Positions 28,481 through 63,058 of a DNA stretch of 64,000 bases are shown here, one piece after another. Below the pieces are notes generated by a model that searched no databases, was not told the DNA's origin, and saw nothing but the letters and a program-made list of their open reading frames with translations. The first letter of the stretch is position 1. The number at the start of each line of letters is the position of its first letter. The position numbers and the translations under genes are program-made. The stretch is from Psammoneis japonica (Eukaryota). The stretch is from positions 124,001-188,000 of the forward strand of contig QPGO01000128.1 in the NCBI GenBank assembly GCA_008632985.1, read 5' to 3'.

Positions 28481-28579
28481 AGTTGTAAAGTGGACAGCAT
28501 TGCCGTTTTCAGCTCTGCAGCTGTCGCCAAACGGACAGTGCAGCACATAGAGAGCAGAGAGCAGAGAAGAATTGCGAAC

Positions 28580-39843: not shown

Positions 39844-41140
39844 TTATTTTCCTCCCTCACCCTTTAGCATGCGCTGTGCCACGGCCGGGGTTAAATACAG
39901 AAGCTTTGAATCGGGAGAAAACATCATTGCCCACATGTGATTGGGCTCTAACGAGGGAACTAATTCAGCTTGAGGCTTATTGCCATCCTCATTGAGATGA
40001 GCCTCGGCGTCTTCGTCTTCACCTTTATGCAACAGGAAACCAGCCATGCCCGCCACAAGCGTGGCTGCATCTGAAATGTTGCTCCAAGCCAAGCTGACTT
40101 TCATCGGGACTTGGTTCCAAACACTCAGCTGCTTCTTGACATAGTCTGACAAACCACTAAAATCGAAACCATTTTCCAAATCCTCTGCCAGAATCTTCTG
40201 CCTGCCCGTCAGGAAAGGGATCAACCACCCGTTGCAGGCCTTTGCTTCCATTGGCTTGCCCGGAAAGCTGCCTCCACCACCCACACATTTTGCACCGGTG
40301 GTGTCCATGAGGATGTTGATCCAGAACTTTGCCACCGCGGGATCATCAGGATTCTTCCTGGCATTCGCCAGATTTGCAAAGACATCCGAGACAGTTTTCC
40401 AAAAATTCGGTCCAAGGCCTGCTTCGGTTTGTATGGGGTTCAAGATCTGGCGGACTCACTCCAGTTTGGTTGACAGACTCTCCCAATCCGCAACACTTCC
40501 CGACATTTCTAGCCCACGCAGACCACAACCACAGCAACGCATCTCGTAGGTGAAGAATTCCTGCAGACTTCCCATCAAGTTAATCTGAGATGCAATCTTG
40601 TGCTCAGCACCAGACGTGCCAAAGTCATTCTGCATTTCTTTTGCAAACTCGGGCATTTTTATCTTGTTCCCAATTTCATGGGCAAATGCTTCAAACAAAA
40701 AGTCGCAGTCTGCATCGCACATGATGTGGCAAGGGAGGTTGATGACAGCAAAATTTGTTGTTGGCTTTTCCAGAATCAATGGGGTGCATCTTGTTGGGAA
40801 TGAGAAGATTTGCCAACCGCTCTGATGGCAGCTTTTGCGTGGGGGTGTCTTTTTCCAAAGCTGCTGCCAAAGATGGCTTCAATCACACATCAAGCTTCAA
40901 ATCAACCAGCACATCACAGTTTCCTTTTTTCTTTGCAATCCTGCGGCTTGCTGCTGTGGAGGACAACTCAACTCAACACAACGATTGCCAGTTGGCACTG
41001 GTGCCCTTTGCGGACTTTGGCCCCCATTGGACCCGACCGGCTGGGGTGCAGAACTCCTTGAAGAAAAGTTCCAGACCGGCATCTAAGAAACAAAAACAGA
41101 AGAAGGGTGTTTTGCGATCGTGCTCAACCCGAAGTTGAGG
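39844..41140 (-). pseudogene. DUF4419-like protein gene, partly eroded
   Basis: QINLMGSLQEFFTYEMRCCGCGLRGLEMSGSVADWESLSTKL motif; in-frame TGA at 40456; 5' half reads PCHIMCDADCDF, consistent with Tyr->Cys. Confidence 0.65.
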
Positions 41141-42129
41141 AGCAACACCGTCAGTTGTCCATTTTGTCAAATTGCGACAGGTCCCTGGTGCAGATTGCCA
41201 CAGTGTTGCCGATGGGTTCCAGTCCCAGCTGCCGAATCAAAAAATTTGCGACATCGCAAAATTTGCGACAAATTCCGAATCCCCGCACAATCATCGTGCG
41301 GCGAGTCGAGAAACAACCCTTGTCACCCTCCAAGATCATCTTTGCGACGCGGCCAACATCCTCTGGTGCAATTCAAGGTGCAGGCGTTCTTTCTACTTCG
41401 ATTAAGAAAAGGCACGATGCACGAGAAATGACAAAAAATCCTTATTTTCAAAGGAAATTGCCTTCTCGTGACAGCAACTCATGCCGACGCATCGCAAGAT
41501 TTCAACAAAAAATGACCTTTTTGGATGATTGCACCGCCTTTCCTCACAAACAAAACGTCGTGTGGCTCTTCATAATGATGACAATCTGATTGGTTTGTTA
41601 TTTCATGTCACTTGCAGACCTTCGGTTGTCGAAACAGTGGCATTTGCTCATTTGAAGCGAAAAATGAAGCACTCAGAGACCTCGCACGTGCTTTCATCGT
41701 GAAAAAATTCGAGCCATTTGTTTTTATGAATTAATTTGCGATTCGCAAATTTTGCGTTTCAGCAGCCAGGTGGGACTTTTTGTGACATTTGCCCCGTAGA
41801 ATTCTGCGTGCGAGCTCTGCAGTTCGTACTGTGGTCAATGAACACACTCATCTTCGACACAAAATGAACGGCCAAGTTTGCAGTGCATGTGTCTCTGTTC
41901 GTACTCGCAGTTTTGGACAATGCGCCTGCCCTGCGCCATTCTTAAGACACTCGAGAATGGCGCAGAAGAAAAAAACATTAAAAGTTGTTGAATGGATCAC
42001 CTGACAATTGCACTGTAAAATGATGCAAAATTTCGCCAAAATCACGTAGAAATGTGCGTGCGCGACATGCGACGTGATTCAAAAAACTGTCAATGTCACA
42101 GTTCAGTGGCACCATGCGAGGTCCCACCT

Positions 42130-45100
42130 AGACCTGGAACACGTCCGCCGGTGAAGCCGTCGGTTTTCCAGACATGTCAAGTGGGTCCCTGGTGCAGCTG
42201 ATGAAATGGAGAGTTGCCAATCTGCCACGATTGTCAGGAGTCAGAATGCTCCTGTGCTTGTGCCTCAACCTCCTGTTCCTGAGAAATGCAACGACGTTTG
42301 GAGGGAGGTCTTACATCGTCATTGCAATTGTTTGTCGGATCAAATTCCTGAATCCTGGGTTGACTGTTGACCCATCTGCGCAGAGCCGCTCGTTCGTCCT
42401 GGAGTTGCACACCGACCCCAAGTTTGCGGGACAGCCGTTCTCGGGCTGCCACAATGTTTGCCAGCCAAGAGCGTTTGAAAGAGGTGGACTGAGAGAGCAG
42501 GGAGACAACGTGACCGCAGAAATGACAGGCAAATTCCCCTGGGAGTCCCTCTCAGCCTCGCTGAAAATGGCGGCGAATCCATGAGTCTAGCTTGTCTCTG
42601 GCTGGCTGGCTTGCTAATTTGAGGATGAGCGGCAGCATTTCTGTGTTCCCACAACCGTTGCGTTGTTCCAACAAGTTGGTGGACCCATCTTCTGACCCAT
42701 TTCGAACCCAATTTTCTAGAGCCTCGGAGCCGAAAATGTTCCTGTTGTAAAAGAGCCCACTCCTTTGCCACACAGCCTTCCAGAAGTCTGTCCCAGCCAA
42801 TGATGCACTGTGACTCAACTGCCTGATGAAGGATTGGGCTAGCGCGAGGGTCGAGGCGGATGTTGATGTGTTGATGACTGCGCCAGGCGGTGAGATGTTC
42901 CTGGATGGTGCTCGCCAGGCCAAAAGCCGCATCGTTGTGATCCACCCAGCGGACATGTTTGCGCAAGAGCGACCTCAACTTGTCCGCAGCCTCTGAGCAG
43001 GTGACAACGTGCGCAGTGTCTTCGTTGTCAGCATCACACCGGGGGCATCGCAAATGATCCTGAACCTTCCAGCGTTTCAGCCATTTGCCCACTCCACACA
43101 TTCCTGCCACGTGTTTGGCCATCCACCGTCATTTGCCGATGCCAAGATTCTTGGCGACTGTCTCGATGACGTCCCAATCGATCCTGCGGAAGCCCTCATT
43201 CGCAAAGCATCGTTTTTGTTCGATCCAGCATTTTGCCAGCCGTGTGCCGTGAACATGATGATGCAGCCGCTCACCAAGCTTTGTCGAGATCTTGTGTCCT
43301 CCAATGAAAACACCCCACATTTCATCTTCGATGTCAAACTGTCGTGGAAGCCTTTCCTGAGGGTCCAGTTGAGCTTCATGTTGCCATCGTGCTTTAGCCA
43401 GGTTGTCCATCTCAACATTCAATCTTGCCCATCTGTCGAGTCTTCTGCATCGTAGAGTGTCTTGATGTCCTTTGACCCACCGGAATTTCCACCGCAGTGG
43501 GCTCTTGGCAATTTTTTCCTTGATGGCGCTTAAAATGTCAAAGTCGTTGGACCGGGCAGTGATGGGAAGAGTGGGGTCCGACGATTTCCGTGGGGCTTGT
43601 TTGCCATCACAGGCGATTTCAATTGCTCCTTGTTGAACATTGTGATGCAGACAGATGTCTTCAACCGTGCAGACAATGCTGTGGAGACCTGCTGTCTCCG
43701 CTTGGCAGGAATTGGCATCACCAGGGTGACCTGGCAAAATGTTGGCACCCGTCACTGGGTGAGTTTCTCGTTCCCCTCGGACAGTGAATGCCGATGTTGC
43801 AAGATTGTCTTTGGCTGACCCATCACTGACCGCAATGGCTGCGCCTGACTCGGTGGCATTGGCAACATGCAGTCCATCATCATCGACAGTGACTTTGTCG
43901 TTTGCCCACTGTCGGGCCGGAGGTCGTTGACGGAGTCGCTGAAGAAGATTGATCGGACCTGGAGCTTCCTGTCTGGGTCTCGTGCTGGTGGACCCCGAGT
44001 GACAAATTCCCCATCTGTCCTTGCCTTTGCAGCATGCGCGAGTGCGTTGAATGTCGTTGGGCGGTTCGGTCAGTCCAGACGGAACAAACCGGCAATGATG
44101 ATTCCTCGTTTGCCTGCTGCTCGACAACCTGAATGAGTGCCACAGGTTGTTCTGACCCCATTGACACAGACGCTGTTCCGACAGAGAATGGAGCCACTGC
44201 CAGTGGGAATCGTCAACTCCAGCATCGGGAAGCCAGTTCCCTGAGGATTGGTGTGATCGCCTTGCATGGACACTGGTTGCCCATGTAAAGCAGTGCCTCA
44301 GAGCAGTGCGCCACGTTGTCCAATCTGTGGCCTTCGGACATTGTTGCGGGGGCCATTTGCATTGTGGCCAAAAAAAGGTGTCCTTCTTTCCATTCCACAT
44401 GTCACAAAGAATTTCACACCCGTTGCCAGTTGAGATGTCAGCAAGTGTTGCGACATTCAGGAAGGCACGGCACCGATTGAGAGCCTGCAGCTTGGCCCCC
44501 CTGAAGCCTTCATCTGCAAATCTTTCCATGAGAAACGCGTCATTCTCACGTGAGAGAGTCAGCGACGGTGCATCCTCGTTGTTGCTGATGTTGTGGCTGG
44601 ACAGACATGTCTGCAGATGCTTGACCCATGACTTGGCAGCCAGGCATCCAATTGTTTGTGACATGAGCTCGCAAGGAAGGAGCTTCCGATTCCGATTTCC
44701 AGCTTGTGTTTCTCCACGAGTGCTCGGAGAAGTTGTCCCGTGATCGTGTCTGCTTTTCCGTGTTTGACAAATGCCTCGACGTGTTTCCTGTACATGGTGG
44801 AGGCAATCCATTCGAATCCGAGGCCTTGCAGTCGGATCGGAACCGCGCACAACAGCACGGGGAAAGGAGCTGCACAGACCCAATCTCGGAAGGCCTTGTT
44901 TGAGAAGTGGTGCTTCGACACATCTGCATTCTTTCGACGACAGAGTGAGGGCAAGGAGAGGGCAGTTGAGTGCCTTGCAGACTCTTTGAGTCAGGGCAAG
45001 CCACGCATCAGCCTTAGAAAGATGACCCGATCGAGCCCGATCCGCCCAACCTTCAGCGTGTTTCCGGAGTTCTTCCACCGCAGTCCTGCAGTTTCCATCG

Positions 45101-45360
45101 GGGGCCAACCACACTCCTGGAGTTTTCTTGGTGATGGAAGGCGAAAGTCGTTCAATCAGGTGTCTTGTTCCCTCGTCATCCTCTGCGCACATCTGTGGGT
45201 CATCCTGATCATCGGGGTTGCTCTCCTTGTGAACGCACTCCCATCTGCCATTGGTCCATTTGAACTCTGTTAAATGCCACCAGCATTTGTCCGGGCGGGT
45301 GTCGCCTCCCGCAACTCTCATGAAAAGAGTCCGTGTGACTCTACGCCAGACTGGCACTCA
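42130..45360 (-). mobile_element. non-LTR retrotransposon (LINE) ORF2 3' part with RNase H and Cys/His knuckle
   Basis: GGDTRPDKCWWHL.EFKW.NGRW, AIAVSDGSAK, IEIACDG, FRWVKGHQD, LNVEMDNLAK, CPRCDADNEDTAHVVTC; no Tyr in the 742 aa ORF. Confidence 0.88.
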
Positions 45361-45364
45361 CAGA

Positions 45365-48300
45365 CGACTTTGGTCCTGTGGCGCCAAATGGATGTGTGAT
45401 GTCCGACGCATGATTGCGACCAGTGCATTGGACATGGGAGGATGAGTCCCAGAAGAGGAGGTGACAGGTTCAACACCCGACATCTCTTCCCTCTCTCTCT
45501 TTGATTGGCATCAACCTGTGCATTGCCACATGCCTGTGGCAGAGTTCCCACACGAAAAGAAGTGCATTGGCCGTTGGCTCGGCGCAGCTGACAACTGCAC
45601 TGACAACATGGCATTCATCATTTTGCCCGAATCAGGCAAACCCATCATTCGGAAGGATGTGTGGGCCACACCGGAGGATGACCTTAAAACTCCGGCGATC
45701 CAGACGGATCTTGCATCGGTCGATCAAGCTTTGATCAAACGGCTCAGCATCCCGGAAAAGGGTGCCAGTGCTGACTTCCCTGAACTCCCTGACGACTTCA
45801 TGGACGAATGGGACGATGCCGTTGAACCCGTGGAACCCGACGCTTCCAAACTGGAAGCTGATGAGCACACCCCGGAAGGGCTAGATGAATGTCTCACAGC
45901 TCAAGTCATGTTGCCACGAGGAGGCGAGCTGACTCATGCCAGGGTCATTGCACGCAAGTGAGACAGCGACGGGGTGCCTGTTGGCACTGGGAACGACAAC
46001 CCTGTCCTAGACTCGAGGACATGCGATGTGGAATTCCCTGACGGATCCACCGATTCCTTTGCTGCCAACGTAATTGCAGAGAACCTGTTCACTCAGATCG
46101 ACTCTGAAGGGAATGCCTGCCAGATCATGAAGGAAATGGTTGATCACCAACGTGATGCCCATGCCGCAATGGCCAATGATGGGCACACAACGACTGAGAC
46201 TGGCAGGCGTGCTCCCAGGAGGACGACCGCAGGCTGGGACCTGCAAGTCAAATGGAAGGATGGGGCTGCATCCTGGGTTCCTCTCAAGGATTTGAAGGAG
46301 TCCAATCCAGTCAAGATTGCTGAGTGCGCTGCAGCGAACAAAGCAGTTGGTGAACCAGCCTTTGACTGGTGGGTCCGAGACGTCTTGCGTCGCAGGTCAA
46401 GGATCCTGAAGAAAGTCAAGTCACGTTGCTGGAAACGTGCGCACAAGTTCGGAATTGAACTCCCAAAATCTGTTGAGGAAGCCATGGAGATAGACAACAG
46501 AACGGGGACCGACTTCTGGTTCAAGGCCATTGAGAAGGAAATGCGTGACGTCATGCCTGCGTTCGAATTCCGCGATGACGACACTGTGCCGGTCGGGTGC
46601 AAACACATTGATTGTCATGTGATCTTTGACATCAAGAGCACCCTCCAACGTAAAGCGAGGTTCGTGGCCGGAGGCCATCAAACCGATCCACCCAAGGAAT
46701 CGACACATTCCAGCGTGGTGTCGCGTGACAGCGTTAGGATGGCATTCACTGCAGCAGCTCTGAATGACCTGGAGGTCCTGAGTGCTGACGTTCAGAATGC
46801 CTGCTTGAACGCACACACCAAGGAAAAGTGTTGCACCACTGCTGGCCTGGAATTTGGGAAGCAGAACGAGGGAAGGCCGGTGATCATTGTCCGTGCCTTG
46901 TGTGGTCTCAAGTCTTCAGGTGCAAGATTTAGGGAACATGTGGCAGCCACTCTGCGGGACGCTGGGTTCGAGTCTTGCAAGGCTGACCCGGATGTCTGGA
47001 TGTGGGCTGTGGTTAAGCCGGATGGCTTCAAGTGCTGGGAACATGCACTTGTCTGTGTGGACGACTTGTTGTGCGTCTCCCATGAACCTCAGAAGGTCAT
47101 GGATTGTGTGAGCTCCAGGTGCACGCTCAAGGACGGAAGTGTCTGCGAACCGGAAGAGCACTTGGGCGCCCAGATCAGAAAGTGCCAGCTGTCTGACTCG
47201 GATGGCAAGACACGCTGGGCCATGTCCTCTGACCTTCATGTCAAAAAGGGCATCAGCTGATGTTGAATTGGAGCTTAAGAAAACTGACAGGCATCTTCCG
47301 ACGAAGGCGTTGACGCCCTTGAGCTCGGGACATGGGCCTGAACTGGACGGTTCACCTGAGTTGAATGCCAAAACGGCTAACTGCTGTCAAGGCCTTGTTG
47401 GTGTGCTGCGGTGGGCAGTTGAACTGGGGCGAGTGGACATTTTTGTCGCTGTCTCGCTCATGTCCTCCTGCTTGGTGGCACCACGAGTTGGACACCTGGA
47501 CGAGGTGCTCCATGTCTTTGCATGCTTGAAGGCTCGCTCCAAGTCTGCGCCAGTGTTCGACGACACTGAGCCCGTCTTTGACGGGAGTCACTTTGCCAAG
47601 TGTGATTGGGAAGAATGTTGCCCTGGCATGGCTGAACCAATGCCGCCGAATGTGCCGGAGGCACGCGGGAACAGCGTGACCACCACTTGCTTTGTCGATG
47701 CTGATCACGCCGGATGCCGTGTGACGCGCAGGTCCCACACTGGGATCCTGACATTTGTCCAATGAGCGCCCATCTTGCATTGCTCTAAGCGGCAGAATGC
47801 CGCAGAGTCCTCTGCTTTTGGGTCGGAGTTCGTGGCCATGAAGACTGCAGTGGAGCAAATCGAAGCCTTGCGTTGCAAGCTTCGGATGCTCGGAATCCCC
47901 CCATGGATGGGGCCACTGACGTTTTCTGCGACAATGAAGCTGTCTTCAAGAACTCAACTAAACCGGAGTCCACTTTGAAGAAGAAGCATGATGCAATTGC
48001 CTGTCACAGGACTCGTGAGGCACAAGCCGCTGGAACAGTGCGCATTGCTTGGGAAGACGGATGCACGAATCTGGCGGACGTGCCAACCAAGTTGTTGCCT
48101 GGACCGAAGCTCCGGGAAATCACAAGTCATGTCCTGTGGTGAGTCCCAAAAGGGGACAAACCAAACGGGTTTGCCGCGCAGGTGCGGCTTTTCCCACCCC
48201 CAAAACACAACTGCCACCCTGGAATGGGGCAGCATCAGGTTGCATTTGTCTGTCGATCTGACCCAAGCGGAGCCAGTGTCAGTTCGAGGGGACTGAATAA

Positions 48301-48400
48301 ATGCTGATGTGCTGTCACGAATGTGGGCAGTTTATGCACTGTTGGCAATTGGTCCACTGTCACTTGATCAGTGGCCCCAGCAGCGCAACATCTCACAATT
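45365..48400 (+). mobile_element. Ty1/copia (CoDi-like) LTR retrotransposon, 5'-truncated: integrase tail, RT, RNase H, PPT and start of 3' LTR
   Basis: TGSTPDIS, RKARFVAGGH, SSVVSRDSVR, DVQNACLNA, ALCGLKSSGA, VCVDDLL (YVDD), FVDADHAG..TRRSHTG, FCDNEAV, NLAD..TK; gaggggac then TG at 48294. Confidence 0.93.
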
Positions 48401-48404
48401 CTAG

Positions 48405-49430
48405 AACCTGTTGATGCTGTTCAACACTCTGTCTTGTCTTGCACCCAATTCTTGGCTGTCATGGCAGCATTTGTTCAGATCCATGGTCTCATGCTCACAT
48501 TGCAGTCAGACGGGTGACGCAGATGCGACAGGTGTTCTCTTGCGCACTGCGTCGCTCCTGGTGGAAATTCATGCGATCCATCCAGAACAGCATTGGAGTG
48601 GGGGCCAACTCCAAGAAATTGCACATCATCAATGAGAGGCTCCTGCACAAGAGCGGTGTGATGCGTTTGGTGAAGTCTTGACTTGCAGTCTTGAAGCGCT
48701 GGAGCTTCCATTTCCTCTTTTTCAGCAATCTCTTGATCGGAGCCGTCTGCTTGTTTCTTGAGGAGGCGTGTGAGTGGGGATCGGAGAGGTTTGCCGGAGA
48801 TCCAATTTGCTCTGTGATTCTGCTCCCTAGACTCTTCGCAGTTGATGAGCACTCGCAGTTGTGTTTCAGCATCAGAGTTGTTGGCTCTGGCCAGCTGATC
48901 TGCTCTTTTCTCCAGAAACTTGCGTCGGTGGTCGGGAGCGTCTTTGGCGATTGCTCGACATTCTTCACAGCGTTGTGATGGATCTGCCTCTAACTGGACA
49001 AGAGTGAGGTTGTGCACTTCAAAGTCTCTTGATTTTCTTTCCAGACGGCACATTTTCCGAGAACTGATCGTGAGGCGTTTCCATCGGCGAATTAAAGCGT
49101 GGTGCAATTCGATGCGTTTGGACGCTCGTTTGAGCTTGGGAGACCAGGACTTGCCTCCCATGCGAAGCTTTCTGCATTTCTTGTCGGCAAGCCACATGCC
49201 TTGAACTCGGAGTTTGTCAATTCTCTCCCATTCATCGGTGAGTTTGGGTTGCGGGGGACAAGTGGCCTGCTTTTCATTTCGAATGCTCCTGCTGGGAAGA
49301 TTGTGTGCTGGTGCATGGTCTTTGCGGATTTTGTTGAATCTGCTCACTGTGACTGGATCATCAAGTTTGAGTCTCCGAGTGGGATGCCTTTCGAGTTCCG
49401 GAGGAAGAGTGCCAAAAGCGGTCTGATGCT
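48405..49430 (-). mobile_element. LINE ORF2 upstream part (endonuclease-RT linker)
   Basis: RRLKLDDP, ADKKCRKLRMGGKSWSPKL, same strand as 42130-45360. Confidence 0.75.
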
Positions 49431-52400
49431 GTGGAGGACAACATTGCATGAGGGGGGGGTTCCTGCAAAGGGAGTGATTCAAGGACATTCTCATTTGACT
49501 CTTGCCGCTGCCTGCAAAGTTGCGCAACATCTTCTAAATGCAACAACTGAGTTGCACAATGATGCAACTCAATCAGTTGCAAGTTGATGGTCAGAGAGAG
49601 CAAAGCAAGTCTTGCCTGATGGAGCTGAGGTGATCAAGTCTCGTTTTGACAGGTGACAAGCTGCAGAGCAAGCTGGAGAAAGTCAATGCCGTGCACAAAG
49701 AGATGTTCCATCTGTCTGACAGTGTCGACTCTGATCAGTGAAAGTTCAGTCATGTTTTCCTGGATGATGACAATGTTCGATCATGAGGTTCTACACAAAG
49801 CAAAGGAATGTCTCATTTCCTGTCACTCTCCACCCCCTTGAATGGAGTGAGTGAATGTGGACAGCATTCAGGGAAAGAATGTGAGCAGGAACAAGCCAAA
49901 GGGCACATTCAATCATCACCCAAATTGTTTTCTTGGTGCCTTGAGTTTTTGCAAGGATGTCTCTGTGAGTTGACTGTCTGTGGGGCCCACACCAGGACAT
50001 GATGCTGGTGACCCACACAAGAGGAAAATGCTGTGACCCCCTCTCGTCAGCTGACATGTTGGCAACACTGCTCAATGTGTCATGTGCACTTGGTCTGCTG
50101 ATCATTGGTGCTCATCTGAACAGTGACCTTGTTGTCCAGAAAGAGAATGGCAGGAGCAGCAGCAAGACATTGGGGGGCTCAGTTGAGCACTTCTCTTGGC
50201 CAACCCCAACAAGGTGCAAGCGAAGTCTTGCAAGCATGGCAACATGCAAAAGTGAGCAACTGCCACAGCACTGGCACAAGCACCCATCCACTCAGACTCT
50301 GCAGAAGATGTTGTGAAAAGGGTGGAGAGAGATGGGCTGGCGCGTCAAATGTTGCCCCATTGAAGAAAATCACAGTTCCGACAGTTTTGATCTCCTGGCA
50401 CATCAGGGCAGCCCTCCTGCCAGCTCTCATCTCAGTGAACACAATGGACTCCAAATGACTGATGTTTCAAGCTTTGCAAATTGTCAACACTGGGCTCTTA
50501 GATGAAAAAACCAGATCTAAATTTTGCAGTGCCATCACTCCTTTGCCAGCTGTGCTGGTGCCGGCTGACCCACACCCCCAGCACACAGCAGTCAATTGAG
50601 GCAGGAGCGCTTGCATGGGATCAGCTGGAATGGGCATTGCCAGAAGGTGTGACACCCCGCCAAGACAACAATTGAAAAGGAATGATTCACACGAGGGATT
50701 TGTTGCATGCTTGTTGATGACAGCCACAGAAGGCACACCACAACTGTGGTGGACAATTGCACTCGGATGTGTTTTTAGAACAGTCCACAAAAGGAGCCTT
50801 GAAGGTGAGACAAAAGCAGGTCATCGGAGAAAACATTCATGGCATGTAGAAACAACACTGAGTCTTGCATGGAAAAGCTGATGAGAGCAGCAAACTGAAG
50901 ACAATCAAATGGCACCACAGGATGACTTGCGCTCTTGCTGAAAAGGGCCGCAACAGAAGCAGCACATTCGCTGCAAAGAGTGAAGTGCTTGATTGCACAG
51001 CAGAGAAAAGAAGAGAGGTTGAAGACCAATTGGCAAGGAGACAAAAGAAGCAGTCCAGTGAAGTGACACACAGACAGTCAGTGGCAACACGCAGAAACAA
51101 CACCAGATCTTGCATGGAAAAACCAATGGGAGCAGCAAATGGACGACAATCAAGTGGCGCTTGCACCACAAAGAGTGAAGGACTTGATTGCACAGCAAGG
51201 AAAAGAAGCAGCATTGAAGACCGATTTGAAAGGACAAACGTGGGCCAGCGAAGTGACGTGCAGATTGTCAGCAGCATCTGCAGATCCGTGCAGAATTTGC
51301 ACTGGAACCTGTGTGGAAAATTTTGCAGACAACAGAAAATTGTGAGAAACAACAACCAGCATGCAAGCCAACAGGTCACAACACTCATTTTGTTTTCCAC
51401 TGATGAGCTTTGCTCATCATGCTGCAACAAGGATGCACCATTGGCAAACGTGGACAGAATGGGCTTGTTGGAGCCAAATCAACACCATCTGAGAATGGCA
51501 ACATCAGCATGAGAACACGCACAGAAACACATGTGGGAGGTTGCCAGTGGGTGCTCATGCAAAAGAGCACTGGGCTCTTAGATGGATCCCAGCAAAGCTC
51601 AGCTGTCAGATCCTGGTGGCTCTGAAGACAGCCAAAGAGATGAACAAGGGCATCAAAGTCATCAATGCCAAGGCCAGCGACAGAGCCTTGGCAAGCTTGC
51701 AAGTGTCCCAGAGGATGTTTGCATGGGTGTCACAGGCAAGGCAGATGATTGAACAGAGGACAGGCCAAAAATTCAAGCCAGGGTGCTTGGCAGCAACTGC
51801 CTTGGCATCCACCTCTGACTTGAGATGACTTCTTGCCTTGGAGCACACAACGGACAGGAGCTGGTGCATCTTGGAATGCTGGGCTGTCCTGGCAGCCCAG
51901 TGCTGTGGCAAGTCATGAGCAAAGAGCAACAATGTTCAAGGGGGAAGGAGCCATCCTTGTGTCAATGGATGTGCATCCTCTGAAAAAACCAAGTCACATG
52001 GTCGCTGAACATGGCGCTGGTGCATTTGGACTTGACGAGTTGATCAAACTCATCCTTTTCAACTTTCAACATGACAATTGCCAGAGCCAAAACTGATGAT
52101 GTCATTGGCACAGAAGATCAACTTGAAACACAAGCTGTCAAGGAATTGTTGAGCAAAGGGACAAGAAGGAGGGGGGCGCAGGTGCAGACATGCAATGTTC
52201 GGAACAAAAAAGGTGCGTGCCCATCACCAAAAATCAACATTGTTGTCATGTTGTTCATGCAATGCTGACATGAAACAACTTGTTTGCTGCAAAAGAAGGG
52301 GCCAAGAACAAGCTGCAGTTGAGGTCCAGAATGTGCCACACAACCAAAAAAACAAGGTTGGTGGGAAAGCCTTGATCATCCTTGAAGCAGAGCACAGTTG

Positions 52401-54130
52401 AAACTTTTGTTGCATTGAGAGCAGTGCTCAGCAGTGTTGGCAGGGACCCAACAATCAGTGCTGTTCTCAAGATCATCATGTTGCACATTGTGAGAGGACA
52501 TGTCAGAGTCAACCATCCAGCTGCAAATGTTGCTGAGGTTGGTGTTGCTTGACAAGGGATGTTGCAGGCATGCAATCAAAGAACAGTCAAAAGGACATTT
52601 TCTTGAATTCAGAGAGAGAGAGAGAGAGAGCAAAGCAGGCCTTGCTTGATGGAGAGCTGAGGTGATCACAAATCTCATGCCAAAGAAGGGCAAGACAAGC
52701 CAGAGCAAGTGGAAGAAAGTCACACAAAGAGATTTTCCAGACATTGTGAAAGGATCAAAAGCCAGCCTCTGATCCAAAACAAAGTGGTTGACAGAGTTGT
52801 GTTTGAGAGAGCAAGGAGCCTCTCCAAGAACTGTGTCAACCCCAATCAGCAAAAGTTCAGGCAGCCATGGCTTTTTGGATGAGGGTGACAATGTCTGGAC
52901 ATGATGAGGTTCTGCACAAAGCATGGGAATGGTCATTCCCTGTCACAAGTGCACTGCAGAGTTTGCAAGACACACATCCAGTTGTGGGGCATTGCAGATG
53001 TGTGGACATGATGCTTCATGCTGTGCAAGTGCAGTTTGTGGGCACTGTTGCTGCGGGAGCTGCTCCAGTGCATGCTGTTGCTCAGCTCATTTTTTGAAGT
53101 GTCTGATTTTTGGCTTCACCATCATTGTCATCTCATGTGCATTTTGGCCATTGCAGAGAATTTTTAATCTTGAAAACAATCACAAAGAGTGTCTTTTGGG
53201 TTGGCAGCATCAAACAAACATGCACTCAGTCAGAAGTGCCACAGAAACAGAAAAAAGTGCCAATCTGTCTCCTGTGGAATGATGTTCACAACACCCACCT
53301 GCCAAGGAACAACAAGCACAAGGGTTGGAAATGTGCTCTGAATTGGAGCAATTGCAGCCAGATGCACTGCTGTTTGCTGGCATGATGTGCAGCATTTGCC
53401 ACAGACTCTGGGTTCTGATTCTGCAACTCTCACTCCAGGTTTTGTCTGACAGAAAAACTCTACAAAATGCTGCACTGCTGCAGTGCTCACACAACTTGTG
53501 CACAGAGAAACACCCAAGAACATGCCAGTTGTGTTTTCATGACACCCTTGACTTTAACCATTGTCAAATGGAAACACTCCTCATTTGCAAAGCATTGCGC
53601 TGGCATCTTGCAAATGTGCATTGACAGTTGTTGCCATGCTCAAGCAACTCCCACAAGGCAAAGCTGCTCTCAAGTGTCATCACACCATGTGCAGCAAGCA
53701 GGCATGCAAGGGTCATTGCAAGTGGTCATGATCAACATGACTAATTTGCCAATCTTTGGATGCATCATCAAAACAATCTGGGGTTCTGAACTTCTGTGTT
53801 TTTTTTTGTTGCCAGAAGCACCAGGAGCGGCATCACCTTTGTTCTTCTTGTGCAAGCAGCCTGCTTCTGACAATGCCTGAATGGCCTCCACCACTGCGTG
53901 CCATCCTTTTCCCTCAAGGTCAGGAAACATTTGTCCCAAATTCTTTGAGGAAGACATCCTTCAAACTCCTCTGCCTCACAGCAAGTGCACTGGAGCTCTT
54001 CACTCACCGGAGTGACAGCAAAATGGCAATTGCCTCTGCAGTCATCTGCTTGGAGGGCACCTGAATTTGATGCACCTCAGAGGCAGAGATGAGATGTTGG
54101 ACTTGTGGGCAGAGTCCTGGGATGTTTGTG
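49430..54130. repeat. heavily eroded repeat mosaic
   Basis: 49594-49830 resembles 52624-52945; 49434-49560 resembles 55966-56090; 50863-51040 resembles 51109-51235; both TA and CG depleted. Confidence 0.7.
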
Positions 54131-54137
54131 TGCACCA

Positions 54138-55965
54138 TCTTTCTGCGACAAGCTGCTGAGAATTCGTCTTTGTTGGTGTTGGATGCTGAACTTGGATTAA
54201 AGACAAGTGGAGGGCTTCTGTGTCACATCCATTTTGGGTTTGTTCTCAAGGTTTGTCTGTGAGCACACTGAGTGGTCCATCCAATCCATGCTTTGGTTTG
54301 TGGGGCATTTGGTTTTCGTCAATTCTGACTTTTGGAACGTGGGTGCATGAAAACAAGCATGTTGCATTTGTTCTCTGCTGTCGGAAGATGACACAACAGA
54401 AATGGAGAGCTGGCAGAGTGTTGATTGCATGAGCCTCTGCTTCTTGGCGGAGTGCAAGCATTGACAAGTGCTGTCTAGAATGAGTCCATCTGCATCAAAG
54501 GCTCTTTCCGAATGCATTGCCTTGGGCCAGAACATGCTGAAAACAACTTGTTCCCAGTGTTTGACAGAGAAGCTGTTGAGCAAGCACTGTGGTTGCTGCA
54601 GAAGCATTGGAAATGGGTGCGCACAATGTACAAGCAGGAAGAACAAAGGGAGTGCAATGCTGACATCATGAGTGGCTAACTTGTGTCGCTAAACCTGAGT
54701 CATTTTCCTTCCTCACCCTTGAGCATGCACTGTGCCATGGCCGGTGTTAACTGCAGAACCTTTGAGGTTGGGAGAAAACATCATTGCCCACATGTGATTG
54801 GGCTCTGACAAAGGAACCACTTCAGCTTGAGGTGACAACTTGTTGCCTTCCTCAATGAGATGAGTGCCGGCATCTTCGGATTCACCTTCACGCAGCATGA
54901 AACCAGCCATGCCCGCAACAAGCGTGGGCGCATCTGAAACGCTGCACCAAGGCAAGCTGACTTTCATTGTGACTTGGCTCCAACCACTCAGCTGCTCTTT
55001 TACATCCTTTGAACCACCAATTTCCATGGGCTCACCCGGCATGCTGCCTCCACCACCCACCACACATGTTGTGCCCCGTGGTGTCCATGAGGATGTTGAT
55101 CCAGAACTTTGCCACCGCAGGATCGTTGGGATTCTTCCTGGTGTTGGCCAGATTTGCAAAGACATCCAAGACGGTTTTCCAAAAATTCGGTCCAAGGCGC
55201 ATTTCGGTTTGCATGGGCTTCAAGATCTGGTGGACTTGCTCAAGTTTGGTTGACAGACTCTCCCAATCCGCAACATTTCCTGACACTCTGGCCCACGCAG
55301 ACCACACCCAGCAATGCATCTTGCAGGTGAAGAATTCCTGCAGACTTCCCATCAAATTAATCTGAGATGCAATCTTGTGCTCAGCGCCAGACATGCCAAA
55401 GTTGTTCTGCATTTCTTTTGCAAACTCGGGCACTTTGATCTTTTTCCCAATTTCACAGGCAAATGCTTCGAACAAAAAGTCGCAGTCCGCATCGTGTGTG
55501 GTGCAGCAAGGGAGATGATGGCAATGTTTTCTTTGCCTTGATGAGAAACAAACAAGTCTCTCACCTTTTGCGATGATGCACGGTTTGGCTTGGTGGCCTC
55601 ATTGACAGCCTTCGCAGTGCAACAGGCAATGGGAAACCGCCAGTCTTTGGGAGATGTGCACAGGATCTAATGGTTTTTCCAAGCTTCAAAGATGCACCCA
55701 AAGAGACCAAAATGCCAGGACAGCAAACTTTGTCATTGGACTTTCCAAAAAACCAACTTCGACGTTGGAAGTTGGACTTTCCAGAACCAACAGCGCACGT
55801 CTTGTCGGGAATGAGAAGATTTGCCAACCGTTCTGATGGCAGCTTTAGTGCAGAGGTGCTTTTTCAAAGCCTGCTGCCAAAGATGGCTTCAATCAGGCAT
55901 CAAGCTTCAAATCAACCAGGATGTCATAGTTGCCTTTTTCTTGGCAATCTTGGGCTTGCTGTTGA
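54138..55965. pseudogene. eroded segmental copy of 39281-40965 (3' end of membrane paralogue B plus the DUF4419-like gene)
   Basis: Colinear alignment: gagaattcgtctttgt, tggtccatccaatccat, gtgtccatgaggatgttgatccagaactttgccaccgc, ctgctgccaaagatggcttcaatca. Confidence 0.95.
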
Positions 55966-56829
55966 GGAGGACAACATTGTGAGAGGGGGGTTTCCTGCAA
56001 AGCAAGTGATTCAAGAGCATTTTTTCAACTCTTGTCGCCACTTCTCTCCAACTGCAATGGATTTTTTTTAGAAAAGCATGGAGTTGCACAAACCTCATGC
56101 GAGTTCAGTCATGCTGTGACTCATTCAGTCGGGAGCACAGGTGTGATGTGCGGAGCTCATCATCCGAGATGCAAATGCCTTCCACAGTCAATCACGACAC
56201 TGATCAATCAATCGCGGATGTGCATTTTGGGCATCACCACACATCGTCAAGGCATGCACCAGGGTGCCAAATGCATCATGGTTGACAAAACTACGAAGAG
56301 CAGGACTTGAGACGATGCCAGACAGTGGGTTGTTGAGAGACAACTGGCCAATGCCATTGTCGCGCATTCCATGTGGTTCGCACGCGCGGCGAGGCATGAA
56401 CTCGAGTGGTTTTTTCATGAAGGTCTCACATTTGGATGTGGTCATGTCTTGTTTTGTGCACTTTCTGCAAAGCCATGCAGAAAAACAAGGGAGTTTAGAG
56501 CCGGGTTTCAGAAAAAAAGATTTGATTTTGTGGGTCATGTTTTCGTCATTTCCTCAACACCCATCGCCTCAGCCAATGGGCCACACCCAAGCTCTTTTCC
56601 TTGTTGCACTGAGTTTGCAATTTACGTTCATGTCGACGTTTCAGTTGACAAAAATCAGACAAACAAGAGCAAATGCAAGGAGATGCGGTGGTGCTTTTCA
56701 CCTCTCAATGTGGCAAGCATTTGAGATTTTGAATGATGCAGTGTCTGAAGCATGTTTTGAACCAGCTGCAAATGACGCACATCTGACTTGCAACAGGCCA
56801 GCTTTCAAATTGTCTTCTTCCACAGAGTG

Positions 56830-59283
56830 CTGTCACGGCAGATGAGATCGCATGAGACCTGCAGAACCAATTTTGGCAACCTCGTCAGAGTCACGTTCAA
56901 GTGCATCAGAGGGAAAGCAAGAAGAACACAAAGAGCAAGACAATCACCACAATGAAATTTTAGATTCAATTGTTCAACACTTCTGCAAAGACAAACCACC
57001 ATCTGTGGAGGAGAAAGTGGAGGCAACAGTCTGAATGGCAACACCAAACATTCTCTAGATTCTCTCAGTGACGTTCCCAGGGCAAACGTCCAGCTGCCAC
57101 CGGGATGGGGCAAAACGCCGCTTGCCTTGAAATCAATCAAAACTTTTGCATTGGATGGCTCAGGTCCAAGAAGAGCAAGACTCCAGTCAGTCATTCATGT
57201 GACACCAACTCTGAAACTTGTGGATCAAGTTCTGGGTGACTTGGGTCAACTCGGGGCATTTGATCATGTGCCTCACTTTCGATCAATTGTGGCAAGTCAG
57301 ACCAATCAAACCAAAACATGCACAACCTCTTCTGACATGTGAGATCATTGCGACTTTTCTGAGCTCTGACAAAAATGCACTGTCGTTTGTTTGCTGCACT
57401 TGCAAATCTTCACCCAAGGTTGGAGAGGCACCAAGGCAGCTGGACGCCAGCATGGGTTTGCCTGTTTTTGATGAAGCACAAGAGATGGAAGGGATTGGCA
57501 AATCATCTGGCTGTGGTCTCCATGACTCAAATCTTCCAGTTGATTGTTGCCTGTTTGCAACAGCTGCACCTTGTGGGTGCACCGACAATCCACAACAACC
57601 CAGCATTGTCGGTGACAAACTTTGCAAGGATGGTTCTCGAATGCTCATTTCCAAGAGAAATTCAGAGCCCAAGAAGGATGCTGGTGTCCTCAGCTTAACC
57701 ACAAGACTCTGTTTGGACCATGCCTTGCAAAATGGATGCTGGGTGATGCTGTGAGTCAAAATGTCACCACTCCGATTGCGCTGTGTGTTTTGGATGACAA
57801 AGAAATCACTCAATTTCTCTGCAACAATCACACGGCTGGTTCAGAAATTCATTCAAAGGACTTCATGCTTCCACTCACCATCCAAGCAGCATTTCACAAA
57901 CTCAATGTGAGCCGCGCTGTTTCCTTTCATTTGACAAACTGCTGCGCATGGGCTTTTGTGCATGATGCAGAGCATCGGTTCTCAAGATGGACAATGGACA
58001 ACATCGCCGCATTTGCTGTCTGTGGCAGCTCTGACATGTCTCCTTCCAAGTGGGAAGAAATCTTGTCGAGAGCCAAAAGAGCTGCCAAATTGATTGTGGC
58101 CAATTGCAGAGCTCTGGTGACTGGTGTGGACGAGGTGGATTGGGATTTGGCGGTGATGGCCGATCCCGTCCAAAGTGCCATTGACGCTCGCCAAATGATT
58201 GGATGTGTTGGCCGGAAAGCTCCTGGCAAACAACATGGCTGTGTGCTTGCACCAGTGCCTGCAAATGGTGATGAGGGGCTCATGCAAGACAAAGGTGGCC
58301 ATGAATCTTTTGTGTTTGCATTTGATGCAATAGTCAGATTGGACATTGAATTGCGGGAGGATGTCGTGTTTGTGATTGATGAGAGTGCCAGGCTTGGAAG
58401 GCCTTTGCGTGATGCAGAGTTGCCCTCTTGGGCACTTGAATCATTCTCATGCTTCCAGACTCAATGTTCCTTGAAACAATGAATGACATCATGAATTGGG
58501 CAATCACAAAACACAAGAATTGTGAAAGTGACTGGGATCAAATGCGTGAATTGCTTTTGGTTTATAAAAAAGAGAAGGAAAAAGCAAAGTTGCACAAAAA
58601 AGCACAAAGAGGATGGAAAGAACCTTGGAGTGTGGTCAAGTGGGCAACGTGTTTTGAGGAATGCTGGGAAGCTTGACAGCACTCTTGAGGAACTTCTCAA
58701 AGGCATTGGCATTCTTTGGGATGTTCCTTTTGAACAATGGGAAAAAATGTTTCGACTCCTCGTGCAACACAAGAAACACGAGAAACATTGCAATGCACCA
58801 AGAAGGCACATGAAGAGGATGGGAAGAACCTTGGAGGATGGTTGCAAATGCAATGAGCGGCAAGAAAATCCAGCAAGCTCAAACATTTCTGTGAGAAACA
58901 GCCAAAATTTTTTGGCATTGTTTGGGGTGTTGCTGCTGAATTCGGGGAAGCAATGTTTTGACTTCCCGTCCAGTGCAAGAAATGTGAAAGGGGTTGCAAC
59001 GTTCCACGTGTTCACGTTGAGAATGGGAAGAAACTTGGACAATGGTTGGGTGAACAGCGCTCAATGAAAAAAGGTGGGAAAGCTCAACCAGGTGCTCGAA
59101 AAGCAACTCTGGGATGTGGGCATTGTTTGGAAGCCTCTTTCGCAACAATGGGAGACAATGTTTTCGCTTCTTGTTGAACTCAAGAAACGGGAAACAACCG
59201 AAGCAATGAAATACAATCACTACGAAAACGTCATTGAGAAGGATTTGCTCCTTCTGAAGGCTTGGTGTGTTGCCTTTCAGTAG
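56830..59283 (+). pseudogene. SF2 DExH helicase with C-terminal helicase-associated (HA) repeats, pseudogenised
   Basis: LPPGWGKT (Walker A, ~57094), VIHVTPTLKLVDQ, VFDEAQ..LFATAAP, TGVDEVDWD..QMIGCVGRKAPGK; repeated WEKMF.LLV..K..HCN.P..G..LG.W units; frameshifts. Confidence 0.8.
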
Positions 59284-60015: not shown

Positions 60016-61070
60016 CTTTCAATAATATATACCGGTAGAATTGTAATGGCAGAGAAGGAACAGCAATGAATGAATGACGGTTGCGTTGTTAGGTGATACC
60101 TGGTATGTTTTATGTTTACAGTATGTCATGGTCATGGTCCGAAGGCGACAGTTACAACGCCGCAACAACCGTAGCAAGTGCTTTAGAAAACCTCGTACCT
60201 CGTACTCTCTCTCTCTCTCAACCTCCGTCGTCTGTTATCACCCGTGTGCCAGGGCTCACAATGGAGTCCCTTGTATCCGCACTCTCTAGCAGCAGGAACT
60301 AGACTACCGTGAAGCACCGAGAGACTCAATACATCCTTGACAGCACCGGTTGGTTGGTCTTCTATTGCCATTTGACTGCACTGTGCCATGCGGGCCTGTG
60401 GAAAATGTTGCAAAACAAAAGAAGAAGCAGCTGCGTGTTGCCCAACGACATCTCAGGAGCTGCGAAACTGTTGAACCTGTCCCCACAACCAAAGAAAATG
60501 GAGGAGCTGCAAACCAGCTACATTCATCTCCACAAGACTCCATGGAACAACGTGCATCCTTCATTTGCCAAATGAAAAAGAAAAGAGCAAGGGTGTCTTC
60601 GTTGAAACAACCGTGAAGGGTCTTGTGTCTTTTTCCACAGCACGAGAACAACCAATGCAAGACACACCCTGTTTGGTGCTCCACCAGTCCCTTTTGAAAT
60701 GGTGAGCCAGGATCGTGGAATGCTGATGCGAGAAAGCCAGACGACAAACAAGAGCCACCAGAGGCGATTCCCCATTGGTCGGCAAATCTTGGCGGATGCA
60801 AAGGCCTGCAGACAATTGACAAGGACAGTGCAGAGGATGACAGTTCACCAGATTCACAAAATGGTGTTCTGGTGGAATGAGCATGCCAACGGCACAAAGT
60901 GTTTGAGAAGAAAGAAACAGAATCTGTGGAGCAGTCCAAAGCAGCAGAAAGGCTTGGCGCCCTCATGTTTGTTTGGTGTTGACGATTGCCGTGCTGTTGC
61001 CGTTCGTGCCGAACTGGCATGTGCCAAAGTGAGAAAGTCAGACTGCCAAGAGAAGTGAACATTGGTGTGT

Positions 61071-63058
61071 TCAACTGGTCAAACGAGCCTGCTGGGCATT
61101 GATCTGCCGCTGGAGTTCATCGACTTGAGCTTGCATCACCACAACTGTGCTGTCTGCATCCTCAGCTTCCGCCAGAATTGAACATTGGGAAAAGCTAATG
61201 TCGTCACACGTTGCCCTCTCAAGAGTTGCCAGTTGAGCTTGAAGGGCCTCAATTTGAGCTCGCAAATCCTCTCTGGTGGGTGCAAGTCCAGCTTGAACAA
61301 CAGCAGGTCGTGCTTGATGGGATTGAACATTTGCACCACACACGGAAGGAGGAGGCTCGTCCTCACGTCGTGTCAGATCATGCCGCACAGTTCTCTGTCC
61401 AGATGTCGCATGCGTGCCAGGAGCAATGACTTGTCGTGGATCCTCTTGTGCAACCACAGGCTCCTGTTGAATGGTCACAGTGTGAATTGGTGGTGGCTCT
61501 TGCTCTCCTTGATTGGCCACCTCTTCTTGAATCGGTTGTGGGCTTGTGATCTGAACGGCAGACGAAACCATTGGCTGCTGCGATTCTTCACTTTGGCTGG
61601 GCTCTGCAGACAAATTGACTGACCGCTGCATCTCTTCCCGGTGGCCAGGCTCAGCAGGTTGTTCCAAAGGGGCTTCGTTTTCACTGCTGTCAATGCCATG
61701 CTCACCGGTGCAGCATGCATGCAGACAAAAGGTCATTTTTGTCACGCCCTTTGTGACATTTAAAGGCTGCAACACGTCGCCGTGATGCATTGGCTCTTGT
61801 CAGCAGCTGTGTGTTGCACTCCTCCCCATGTGTCACGCGTCCATGCGGCTCTTTTCCAACGTGCACTGACACTGCACGGTTTTGGTGGAACAGTGTGGGT
61901 ACGCACGAAGGAACACACAGAACTGCACAGAGTTTTGCGCGTTCGACAGTGATCAACGTTGCTGCAGACAACTCCCACTCAGGGTTTCGAACCCCTGGCC
62001 TCCTGCCCAATGGTTGCGATGTGCCACTCTGCTGTGAATTCACAACGCAGCATGCATGCAGACAAAAGGTTGTTTTTGTCACGCCCTTTGTGACATTTAA
62101 AGGCTGTAACACGTCGCCGTGACACACCAACTCTTGTCAGCAGCTGCATGTTGCACCGGGCTTTGCTGCTGGGGCTTGAACATTTCTTGCTTGACACGAT
62201 CGTTTCTTGTGGAAAAAGAACATGGCCCCAATGGTGGCTGCACTTGACACGGCAACCACCACGGCAATGACTGCAGAATTGACTCCACCCGAATGTTCAT
62301 CGGGACTCGTTGAAGGGAAAAATGTTGGTTCACACGAGGGAGAACTGGTGGGTTCCATGGTCGAAACACACCTGTTGGCCATTTTGTTGGGCTCACAGAT
62401 GGTGTTTTTGCAGGTGCAACAAAAGGAACAAAACTGGAGGGTGATGTTGGAAAAAAGCTTGGAGGGTCAGTTCCCTCAACAACTTTTGATTCGACATGAA
62501 AGGCTTCCAGCACATCGGTCAAGCCCGCTTCATTTGGCCTGTCCATGGGTTCGTCCAGATCAAAGTTGACTTCGTCACGATGTTCTCTTGGCAACCAACT
62601 TGCATTTGTGTGAAACAATTTGTAAGATGCTGCACAATCCACTTCCAATGCCAGTTCCTGAAGTCCCCTGCTGGCAAGAGAGTGGGTCAAGGTGCGACGA
62701 ATGCGTTCAACCCAGTGTGGTTCCATCCAGAGATGCCTCCGTGTGATTCCACCACGTCTGATTGAGAAACAAATGCTGTCACATTGATGCGGTCTTCAAC
62801 TGCAATGTCAGGGGCACAGCCTGCCACCATGGATTCAAACATCTTTTTTTCCGTTTCATTGAAGGGACGCACATCTCCCATTTGGAGCTGCTGTTTGAAC
62901 GATCCGCGGGGCCGCTGCACAAATTCAAAGGTTGGCACCACCGTTGGAGAGTAAGACGGTGTCGGTGACGGAGCCAAGGTCTGACTTTTTGAGTGCGAAG
63001 TGATGAAACCGATCAGAAAAACTCTGTTGAATAAAACGCGGGACAACATCTTGGCCAT
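61071..63058 (-). pseudogene. eroded type-I membrane protein gene (signal peptide, P/T stalk, TM, cytosolic tail)
   Basis: MAKMLSRVLFNRVFLIGFIT..APSPTPSYSPT; TM VIAVVVAVSSAATIGAMFFF; several frameshifts; TA-depleted except at the 5' end. Confidence 0.6.
61820..62046 (-). mobile_element. putative tRNA-derived SINE between 110 bp direct repeats (61710-61819, 62047-62156)
   Basis: Minus-strand B box GGTTCGAAACCC (61982-61993) and A-box-like CAGCAGAGTGG (62024-62034), 30 nt apart. Confidence 0.5.

Follow-up and report, generated by a model that had tools for sequence, protein, structure and literature searches.

A host-derived pseudogene stripped of TA dinucleotides in a retroelement island of the diatom Psammoneis japonica, consistent with island-limited A-to-G hypermutation of DNA

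We analyzed a stretch of 64,000 nucleotides from the diatom Psammoneis japonica (assembly GCA_008632985.1, contig QPGO01000128.1, positions 124,001 to 188,000 of the forward strand), hereafter called the window and numbered from its first letter. Our subject is the segment 54123-55975, named copy B, which a BLAST search of the window against itself and local alignment identified as a decayed and diverged duplicate of the segment 39266-40967, named copy A. We consider it very probable that copy B is a pseudogene duplicate of host DNA, comprising the end of an intact, putatively expressed gene and a convergent DUF4419 gene, that it lies in an island of retroelements, and that its TA dinucleotides were rewritten by a process acting on DNA and limited to such islands. 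The two copies align in three segments: 39266-40142 with 54123-55005 (79% identity over 901 columns), 40246-40747 with 55022-55523 (87% identity), and 40760-40967 with 55771-55975 (84% identity). The initial annotation of this DNA had placed the feature at 54138-54760; the copy is real, but this range covers only its first third. The left end of copy A starts inside the last exon of a gene encoding a membrane protein, of which it carries the last 307 bases, and the remainder of the duplicated unit is the DUF4419 gene, on the minus strand and convergent to the former. The elements involved are the following:

39266-40967: copy A of the duplicated unit; TA content normal from 39266 to about 40160, low from about 40160 to 40967 (4 TA per 500 bp)
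54123-55975: copy B, the hypermutated pseudogene copy, with a stop codon at an invariant tryptophan, a 17-bp deletion, and a 1-bp indel
38161-39572, plus strand: intact membrane-protein gene matching no Pfam family; exon 1 at 38161-38617 and exon 2 at 38722-39572
39847-40878, minus strand: DUF4419 gene in copy A, now a pseudogene; Pfam DUF4419 with E = 1.5e-17 for 40459-40878
54716-55598, minus strand: remnants of DUF4419 in copy B, in two frames and devoid of tyrosine; Pfam DUF4419 with E = 2.8e-17 for 55035-55598

The two copies, which we refer to as pair 1, differ mostly in one direction. Between positions 39266 and 39990, the 41 TA of copy A correspond in copy B to 19 TG, 15 CA, 5 unchanged TA, and 2 other dinucleotides, and the 30 CG correspond to 21 TG or CA, 7 unchanged CG, and 2 others. 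In the reverse direction, a single TG of copy A is a TA in copy B, resulting in a strong asymmetry (34 versus 1, p = 2e-9). The TA sites are also changed much more often than the TG and CA sites (36/41 versus 14/97, Fisher p = 1.7e-16). Four of the five TA kept by copy B are in a YTAR context in that copy (Y being a pyrimidine and R a purine). The initial annotation had claimed that about 16 of 16 alignable TAY/RTA sites were changed, that CTAG was kept, and that CpG was also converted to TG or CA. Our recount in the range used there (39321-39660) gave 18 aligned TA in copy A, with the same 16/16 TAY/RTA sites changed in copy B (9 TG and 7 CA), one CTAG retained, and one CTAA altered, and the claim on CpG agrees with the 21/30 CG reported above.

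To which copy the changes belong is indicated by a codon-by-codon alignment with seven outgroup proteins. At three sites where copy A has TAT or TAC and copy B has CAT, CAC, or TGC, the outgroups have a tyrosine in 5/7, 3/5, and 6/7 cases and never a histidine or a cysteine; a fourth tyrosine site is not conserved. Copy B also has a TAA codon at the position of a tryptophan that is invariant in 7/7 outgroups. Among the amino acid differences between the copies, the outgroups agree with copy A in 8, with copy B in 3 (all of them Val/Ile), and with neither in 11. The outgroup tyrosines, together with the stop, the deletion, and the indel of copy B, imply that TA is the ancestral state and that copy B is a mutated pseudogene, as judged from these alignments. 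In other words, the outgroup comparison that had been proposed as a check of the initial annotation finds tyrosine conserved at 3 of 4 sites, and TG/CA is not ancestral. The donor copy had also been described as untouched. This holds up to about 40160, and we found no derived change of TA to TG or CA in copy A between 39266 and 39990, let alone as many as in copy B, but it does not hold from about 40160 to 40967, where copy A is itself TA-poor. Selection on the protein cannot explain the asymmetry, since the untranslated 3' flank of copy A (39573-39990) has kept 26/26 aligned TA sites.

The membrane-protein gene has a 104-nt intron with GT..AG borders (38618-38721), and its spliced reading is in frame, with an N-terminus (MPTHVLIRV) comparable to that of its homologues (MPTRVILRE). 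The latter (n=7) are 35-49% identical to it, and the closest Atlas clusters are mostly from Bacillariophyta. The TA content of the gene is normal. Contigs of a sequencing run, X2, span 38069-39794, and one of them contains the GT..AG splice joint (38616>38721). We took X2 as RNA-like only from this one contig and used only the regions that X2 covers.

The limit of the erasure falls inside copy A, whose TA are retained up to 40158, i.e., around 0.4 kb past the point where the RNA-like cover of the intact gene stops. In the part that is depleted in both copies, 11 sites have TG in one copy and CA in the other, and the simplest explanation is that ancestral TA or CG were hit independently once the unit had been duplicated. 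This implies that the duplicated unit was ordinary DNA when it was copied. Similarly, the DUF4419 pseudogene of copy A is interrupted at 40456-40458 by an in-frame TGA to which a CAA corresponds in copy B, and this is the pattern that an ancestral CGA codon would produce. On the evidence of these sites, copy B was erased throughout after the duplication, and copy A only on its DUF4419 side, which abuts retroelements. Around 100 bp (40142-40245) are present in copy A and absent from copy B, exactly at the position where the TA content of copy A falls. RNA-like X2 contigs also match both DUF4419 copies (40307-40653 and 55650-56067, depth 150-460) with 24-30 differences. Since they differ from both copies, the expressed gene seems to be a third DUF4419 paralogue elsewhere in the genome; it has TA at the listed sites where copy B has TG or CA.

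Copy B is part of a broader pattern. In the window, normal DNA (around 20 TA and 25-30 CG per 500 bp) alternates with six sharply bounded islands, in which 500 bp contain 0-4 TA and whose limits we set by the gaps between TAY-type sites. These islands make up 34 kb of the 64 kb and have about 5-10% of the normal number of TA (123 in 34,255 bp, versus 1,110 in the 28,990 bp outside). TG and CA are found in them at 1.5-2.0 times expectation, and in the stretches hit hardest the ratio of observed to expected TA is as low as 0.01-0.08. A distance of 0.4-0.7 kb separates the end of every island from the nearest long open reading frame (ORF). The six islands are:

497-4552: island 1, TA-erased
10914-13118: island 2, TA-erased, between two tandem glycosyltransferase genes
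16883-18236: island 3, TA-erased
22294-28486: island 4, with both TA and CG lost (observed/expected TA 0.01-0.08); holds a second pseudogene
~40160-59212: island 5, TA-erased, 19 kb; holds copy B
60519-62952: island 6, TA-erased

The TA sites that survive in the islands point to a target motif. Relative to normal DNA, they survive per base at 0.36 in CTAA/TTAG, 0.28 in CTAG, and 0.50 in TTAA, and at 0.00-0.08 in all other contexts. The counts of residual TA inside versus outside the islands are accordingly very different between contexts (YTAR 74/169, RTAY 6/339, mixed 43/602; Fisher p = 6e-26), and the islands have only 1-5% of the normal TAY and 11-20% of the normal TAR. With the A of T-A-Y as the target, TG is the product expected at YTAY sites and CA the one expected at RTAR sites. 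In pair 1, the YTAY sites gave 10 TG and 3 CA and the RTAR sites gave 5 CA and no TG, i.e., 15/18 changes as predicted (p = 0.0075), with 7 TG and 5 CA at the RTAY sites. The 19 TG and 15 CA of pair 1 are interleaved along one strand, which indicates that both DNA strands were substrates and excludes a single edited transcript as the source. The counts of TGY and TGR by strand lean the way that this target predicts, but they are blurred by CpG decay, which yields these products as well.

The loss of CG can be separated from that of TA. TA is lost with about 70% of the CG kept at 40.2-49.5 kb, 55-59 kb, and 60.5-63 kb, and both are lost at 1-4.5 kb, 22.5-28.4 kb, and 49.5-54.5 kb, with CG reaching 0.15 of normal in the most decayed islands. 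Within island 5, the 55-59 kb stretch is intermediate between the other two. None of the six islands shows loss of CG alone. CpG loss depends little on the flanking bases, and context or direction rules like those of T-A-Y were looked for in the window and not found. In the islands that still keep CG, TA outside YTAR was lost around 7.7 times faster than CG, taking normal DNA as the starting composition. As in methylated transposons, CG became TG or CA in the same islands (21/30 in pair 1 and 43/51 in the second pair described below), and CpG loss would be a separate and slower process, namely ordinary decay of 5-methylcytosine. Such decay explains the CG part only, given the islands with erased TA and around 70% of their CG.

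We then considered which sequences were hit. Four features are informative:

45962-47257, plus strand: remnant of a dead Copia-type reverse transcriptase (Pfam RVT_2), with 0 tyrosines in 432 residues
42343-45357, minus strand: second retroelement, with two long tyrosine-free open frames and a zf-RVT trace
26753-27702: pseudogene of a PolyA_pol/CCA-adding enzyme in island 4, the mutated member of a second pair
32546-33539, minus strand: the unmutated member, part of an intact gene for a PolyA_pol head domain (ORF 32906-34216); TA and CG are normal

Copia elements carry a YVDD motif. The remnant in island 5 reads LVCVDDLL, with CVDD for YVDD, where a relative named L001 reads LLYVDDIL. L001, a single environmental or metagenomic sequence with 56% identity to the remnant, has a normal TA content (22-42 TA per 500 bp); it has an internal stop and was aligned with an X at this position. 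Its 19 aligned tyrosines correspond in the window to 9 cysteines, 4 histidines, 3 phenylalanines, 3 other residues, and no tyrosine, and the aligned frame has 63 TA in L001 versus 7 in the window. Among the best 120 database matches of the remnant, none is free of tyrosine (lowest content 2.3%, median 4.0%), and the named relatives are from Fragilaria and Epithemia. In the second retroelement, a tyrosine-free frame of 742 residues adjoins the zf-RVT trace.

The abundance of these elements can be assessed with another sequencing run, X1, which comes from one sample and one study and comprises 657,387 contigs and 140.7 M letters, with a depth of 33-58 on unique DNA. The Copia remnant is high-copy in this run (depth 3300-7900). 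More generally, summed depths of 1,200-38,000 at 41170-42437, 44974-48777, and 50680-51947, versus around 50 for unique DNA, reveal high-copy repeat families. The copies of these families differ at around 300-370 places per transition type versus 24-42 per transversion type. Erasure also occurs outside repeats: at 51.9-53.8 kb the summed depth is 57-116, versus 143-215 in the gene region, and the stretch is fully TA-erased. With a depth no higher than that of the gene region, this stretch is not repeated at 85% identity or more. The second pair provides another case in host-derived DNA. Its members are 72% identical, and the 24 aligned TA became 16 TG or CA and 8 other dinucleotides, with none kept; the 51 aligned CG became 43 TG or CA, with 50 lost in all and 1 kept. 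Hence, host-derived sequence is struck whenever it lies inside an island.

Read together, the islands show the trace of a directional DNA-level change of A to G at T-A-Y, which would have acted on both strands within island limits, almost to saturation and faster than CpG decay. Besides repeats, it would have affected host-derived sequence and DNA that is now at single-copy depth, and these comparisons support the idea that place rather than homology decides what is hit.

A process of this kind was recently described in a preprint by Mettrop et al. (bioRxiv, 10.64898/2026.01.13.699255), who measured changes of TpA to TpG or CpA de novo in mutation-accumulation lines of the chlorarachniophyte Bigelowiella natans. 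According to this preprint, 231 of the 302 single-nucleotide mutations fell in one giant-virus and one virophage region, where all but one were A:T>G:C at TpA, at a rate (around 6e-7 per site per generation) that exceeds the background about 1000-fold. It further reports an ADAT2-like candidate enzyme and 124 clusters of TpA-poor and CpA+TpG-rich windows, in which domains of reverse transcriptases and transposases are enriched, and its authors propose a deaminase-based genome defense (10.64898/2026.01.13.699255). Our window resembles these results in the near-exclusive change of A:T to G:C at TpA, as TG or CA by strand (34/41 in pair 1 and 16/24 in pair 2, CG changes being additional), and in its confinement to discrete foreign regions (here with RVT_2 and zf-RVT remnants, host pseudogenes being struck too). 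In B. natans the process acts on single-copy DNA, and here a stretch that today lies at single-copy depth has been erased. Our window differs in the host, here a diatom (a stramenopile) and there a rhizarian, and in the targets, which are retroelement islands and captured host pseudogenes instead of giant-virus inserts. The depletion is also closer to saturation here (observed/expected TA of 0.01-0.1, versus a Rho of 0.45 in the B. natans virus region). CpG decay, flanking-base preference, island limits, paralogue pairs, and diatoms are not mentioned in the main text of the preprint. Conversely, the B. natans mutations were measured as they arose, whereas ours are read from a finished sequence, and the only rate that we can give is relative, around 8 times that of CpG decay. 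Our literature search for a diatom report of a TA to TG/CA scar, or of another A>G genome defense, returned only the B. natans preprint. The window provides a second, independent, and more extreme example of the hypermutation first reported from B. natans, and extends it to another major lineage.

In the mechanism that we propose, adenine in DNA would be enzymatically deaminated to inosine, which is read as G. The context rule read from the window is that YTAY becomes YTGY and RTAR becomes RCAR, that RTAY can take either form, and that YTAR escapes in part. Silenced and probably methylated chromatin would be where the enzyme is recruited, and its role may be a genome defense that wrecks the tyrosine codons and reading frames of invaders. 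We put forward adenine-to-inosine deamination as the chemistry only tentatively. The natural target of TadA and ADAT2 is A34, after an invariant U33. The U-A-C-G substrate of bacterial TadA and the preference of early TadA-derived base editors for YAC resemble T-A-Y; eukaryotic ADAT2/3 substrates differ from it, having mostly a purine at position 35. DNA-editing activities of the amphioxus BjADAT2 and of the Trypanosoma TbADAT2 are cited in the same preprint (10.64898/2026.01.13.699255).

The same letters could have been produced by a chemistry acting on thymine. In this case, a TET/JBP-type enzyme would oxidize the T of 5'-R-T-A-3' to 5-hydroxymethyl- or 5-formyl-uracil, whose mispairing with G would give T>C. 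Since A>G at TAY, read on the other strand, is T>C at RTA, the sequence data fit both chemistries equally well. Besides, 5-formyluracil induces A:T>G:C changes, and the hydroxymethyluracil of dinoflagellates is enriched at TpA. Nothing in our analysis supports this chemistry in particular, and Mettrop et al. (10.64898/2026.01.13.699255) favor adenine deamination, with their ADAT2-like candidate in B. natans. We consider thymine oxidation doubtful.

The process could also have been triggered by homology, as in repeat-induced point mutation (RIP) of fungi, if repeats were recognized and mutation spread to adjacent unique DNA. RIP is likewise a hypermutating genome defense that makes transitions in a dinucleotide context on transposons and leaves a compositional scar. 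It changes C to T mainly at CpA, thereby creating TpA, is triggered by duplication, and hits both copies. In the window, TA is destroyed instead of created, one partner is spared, and DNA at single-copy depth is struck. The high-copy retroelements of the islands and the mutation of the DUF4419 part in both duplicate copies would be expected under a homology trigger. Yet, of the two gene ends, which are 79% identical, the one in copy A is untouched and the other is saturated, and the stretch at 51.9-53.8 kb is fully erased at single-copy depth. A tandem duplicate in the window serves as a useful negative control:

7683-10416 and 13590-16253, minus strand: tandem duplicate of a two-part glycosyltransferase gene, with a Glyco_transf_28 N-terminal and an EryCIII-like C-terminal domain, sterol-glucosyltransferase-like

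Its two copies are 71% identical over 2.6 kb and both have a normal TA content, with island 2 between them. In B. natans, too, the hypermutated giant-virus region is single-copy (10.64898/2026.01.13.699255). A homology trigger is therefore improbable, slightly more so than thymine oxidation. The initial annotation had described the process as asymmetric, unlike RIP, and as following locus or chromatin state instead of homology alone. The first statement is borne out by the 34 versus 1 changes and by the clean state of copy A at 39266-39990, the second, as far as locus is concerned, by the six bounded islands, the single-copy-depth stretches that were hit, and the spared tandem duplicate; chromatin state may play a part in it.

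Another concern is that the letters themselves are wrong, i.e., that a modified base at TA (and 5-methylcytosine at CG) was misread by a long-read base-caller and the true sequence is still TA. Such an artefact would likewise give TG or CA depending on the strand, would be limited to domains, and might follow a context rule. However, the contigs of X1, which suggest a short-read assembly, match the islands exactly: those at 49233-49638, 49612-50079, and 55973-56578 have 0 differences at a depth of 33-38. The same run holds paralogous copies with TA, since 11 of the 26 listed differences in 40516-55504 would restore a TA and 5 a CG (from other copies), and none removes a TA. Copy B also has indels and a stop. 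A base-calling artefact is thus unlikely, and we give it very little weight.

Editing of RNA by an ADAR-like enzyme, followed by retro-copying of the edited transcript, could in turn have made copy B and the dead elements, given the change of A to G after a 5' T and the dominance of retroelements in the islands. It seems even less probable than an artefact: T>C is as common as A>G on the same strand, with TG and CA interleaved, copy B does not correspond to one transcript, as it comprises two convergent genes together with the spacer between them, and the 3' neighbor preferred here is a pyrimidine, with YTAR spared, whereas ADARs prefer a 3' G. ADAR on double-stranded RNA and APOBEC3 on DNA do resemble our process in making clustered deamination-type transitions on invaders. 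APOBEC gives C>T and ADAR acts on RNA, on the transcript strand; here, the change is in resident DNA, on both strands, and with a 3' pyrimidine. The preference for a 5' U/T is shared by ADAR, as noted in the Discussion of the preprint (10.64898/2026.01.13.699255).

Finally, a reverse polarity (TG/CA being ancestral and copy A gaining TA by a RIP-like C>T at CpA), for which only the symmetry of a two-sequence comparison could be invoked, or an avoidance of TA in islands by selection, is ruled out by the outgroup tyrosines, the CVDD motif, and the normal TA of L001, to which one can add that copy A is intact and spliced and that no selection for composition acts on pseudogenes and broken frames.

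Several points weigh against an island-limited rewriting of TA in DNA as set out above. We observed neither the enzyme, nor the base modification, nor the chromatin mark that the process would involve. The direction rule fails at 3 of 18 sites in pair 1 and is weak in the older pair 2 (4/6). YTAR is also reduced, to 0.3-0.6 of normal, so that the 3' pyrimidine is a preference and not a requirement. A single-copy depth today may be compatible with past repetition at the time when the sequence was struck. Run X1 shares its sample with the other runs and may underlie the assembly, so that it provides no independent check on the organism, and it argues decisively against a base-calling artefact only on condition that its data are short reads; its listed differences are 40 of 1,658. 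Lastly, the loss of CpG could in principle come from the same enzyme as that of TA: the amphioxus BjADAT2 edits both A and C, as cited in Mettrop et al. (10.64898/2026.01.13.699255).

If the island-limited rewriting holds more widely, it may be that diatoms, perhaps with B. natans a wide part of the SAR lineages, own a natural editor of adenine in DNA, although we advance this more cautiously than the deamination chemistry itself. Such an editor would be directed to silenced chromatin, and would act on T-A-Y to exhaustion and on both strands independently of homology. Host genes that are captured or adjacent would be reached as well, and active genes would bring it to a halt. The editor would represent a genome defense mechanistically unlike RIP, piRNA, or methylation, and a source of a native DNA A-to-I deaminase, an activity for which, to our knowledge, the only other source is the directed evolution of TadA. 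Directional hypermutation of DNA as a defense is established in fungi (RIP, C>T) and for animal APOBECs. Its A>G counterpart has so far come from a single chlorarachniophyte and from a preprint only, and the same scar is found here at saturation in a diatom, i.e., in an ecologically dominant lineage with genetic tools. The window adds three testable handles: the motif is resolved by strand (T-A-Y, YTAR being spared), the process can be told apart from CpG decay, and there are natural before/after controls in which the outcome depends on place instead of sequence or homology, the limits lying within a few hundred bases of active genes.

The erasure also has consequences for annotation. By removing the stop codons TAA and TAG, it fills the islands with long overlapping open frames on both strands (e.g., 43132-45357 and 48478-49533), of which 113 have at least 110 codons. 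The open frames of the islands have 0.10% tyrosine, 5.3% cysteine, and 4.6% histidine, versus 2.38%, 2.8%, and 3.5% outside. Only 5 of these 113 frames matched Pfam (DUF4419 twice, RVT_2, zf-RVT, and HA), and 108/113 had no match in this database; a Pfam search of 23 more frames outside the islands gave glycosyltransferase domains only. Gene callers would thus report as proteins long, stop-poor, tyrosine-free, and Cys/His-rich false frames, and the islands evade repeat annotation based on homology.

Two further elements complete the description of the window:

4936-6030: Rpt6 proteasome ATPase, 88-94% identical to diatom proteins (Bacillariaceae sp., Cylindrotheca, Craspedostauros, Seminavis, Amphora, Odontella, and others)
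57616-59064, plus strand: helicase traces at the right-hand end of island 5, with HA (helicase-associated) at E = 2.9e-9 and a weak Helicase_C at E = 0.0085

The Rpt6 matches, together with the Bacillariophyta clusters of the membrane protein and the Fragilaria and Epithemia relatives of the Copia remnant, place the window in a diatom and not in Bigelowiella. The helicase traces are possibly another captured or decaying host gene. Island 3 is flanked by an inverted repeat of around 130 bp (16512-16645 versus 18481-18351, 85% identical), outside of which there is a perfect direct repeat of 87 bp (16428-16514 = 18509-18595). These flanks (16428-16645 and 18351-18595) have a normal TA content, with 6 and 13 TA, and the repeats may be the ends of an inserted element or a duplicated promoter region.

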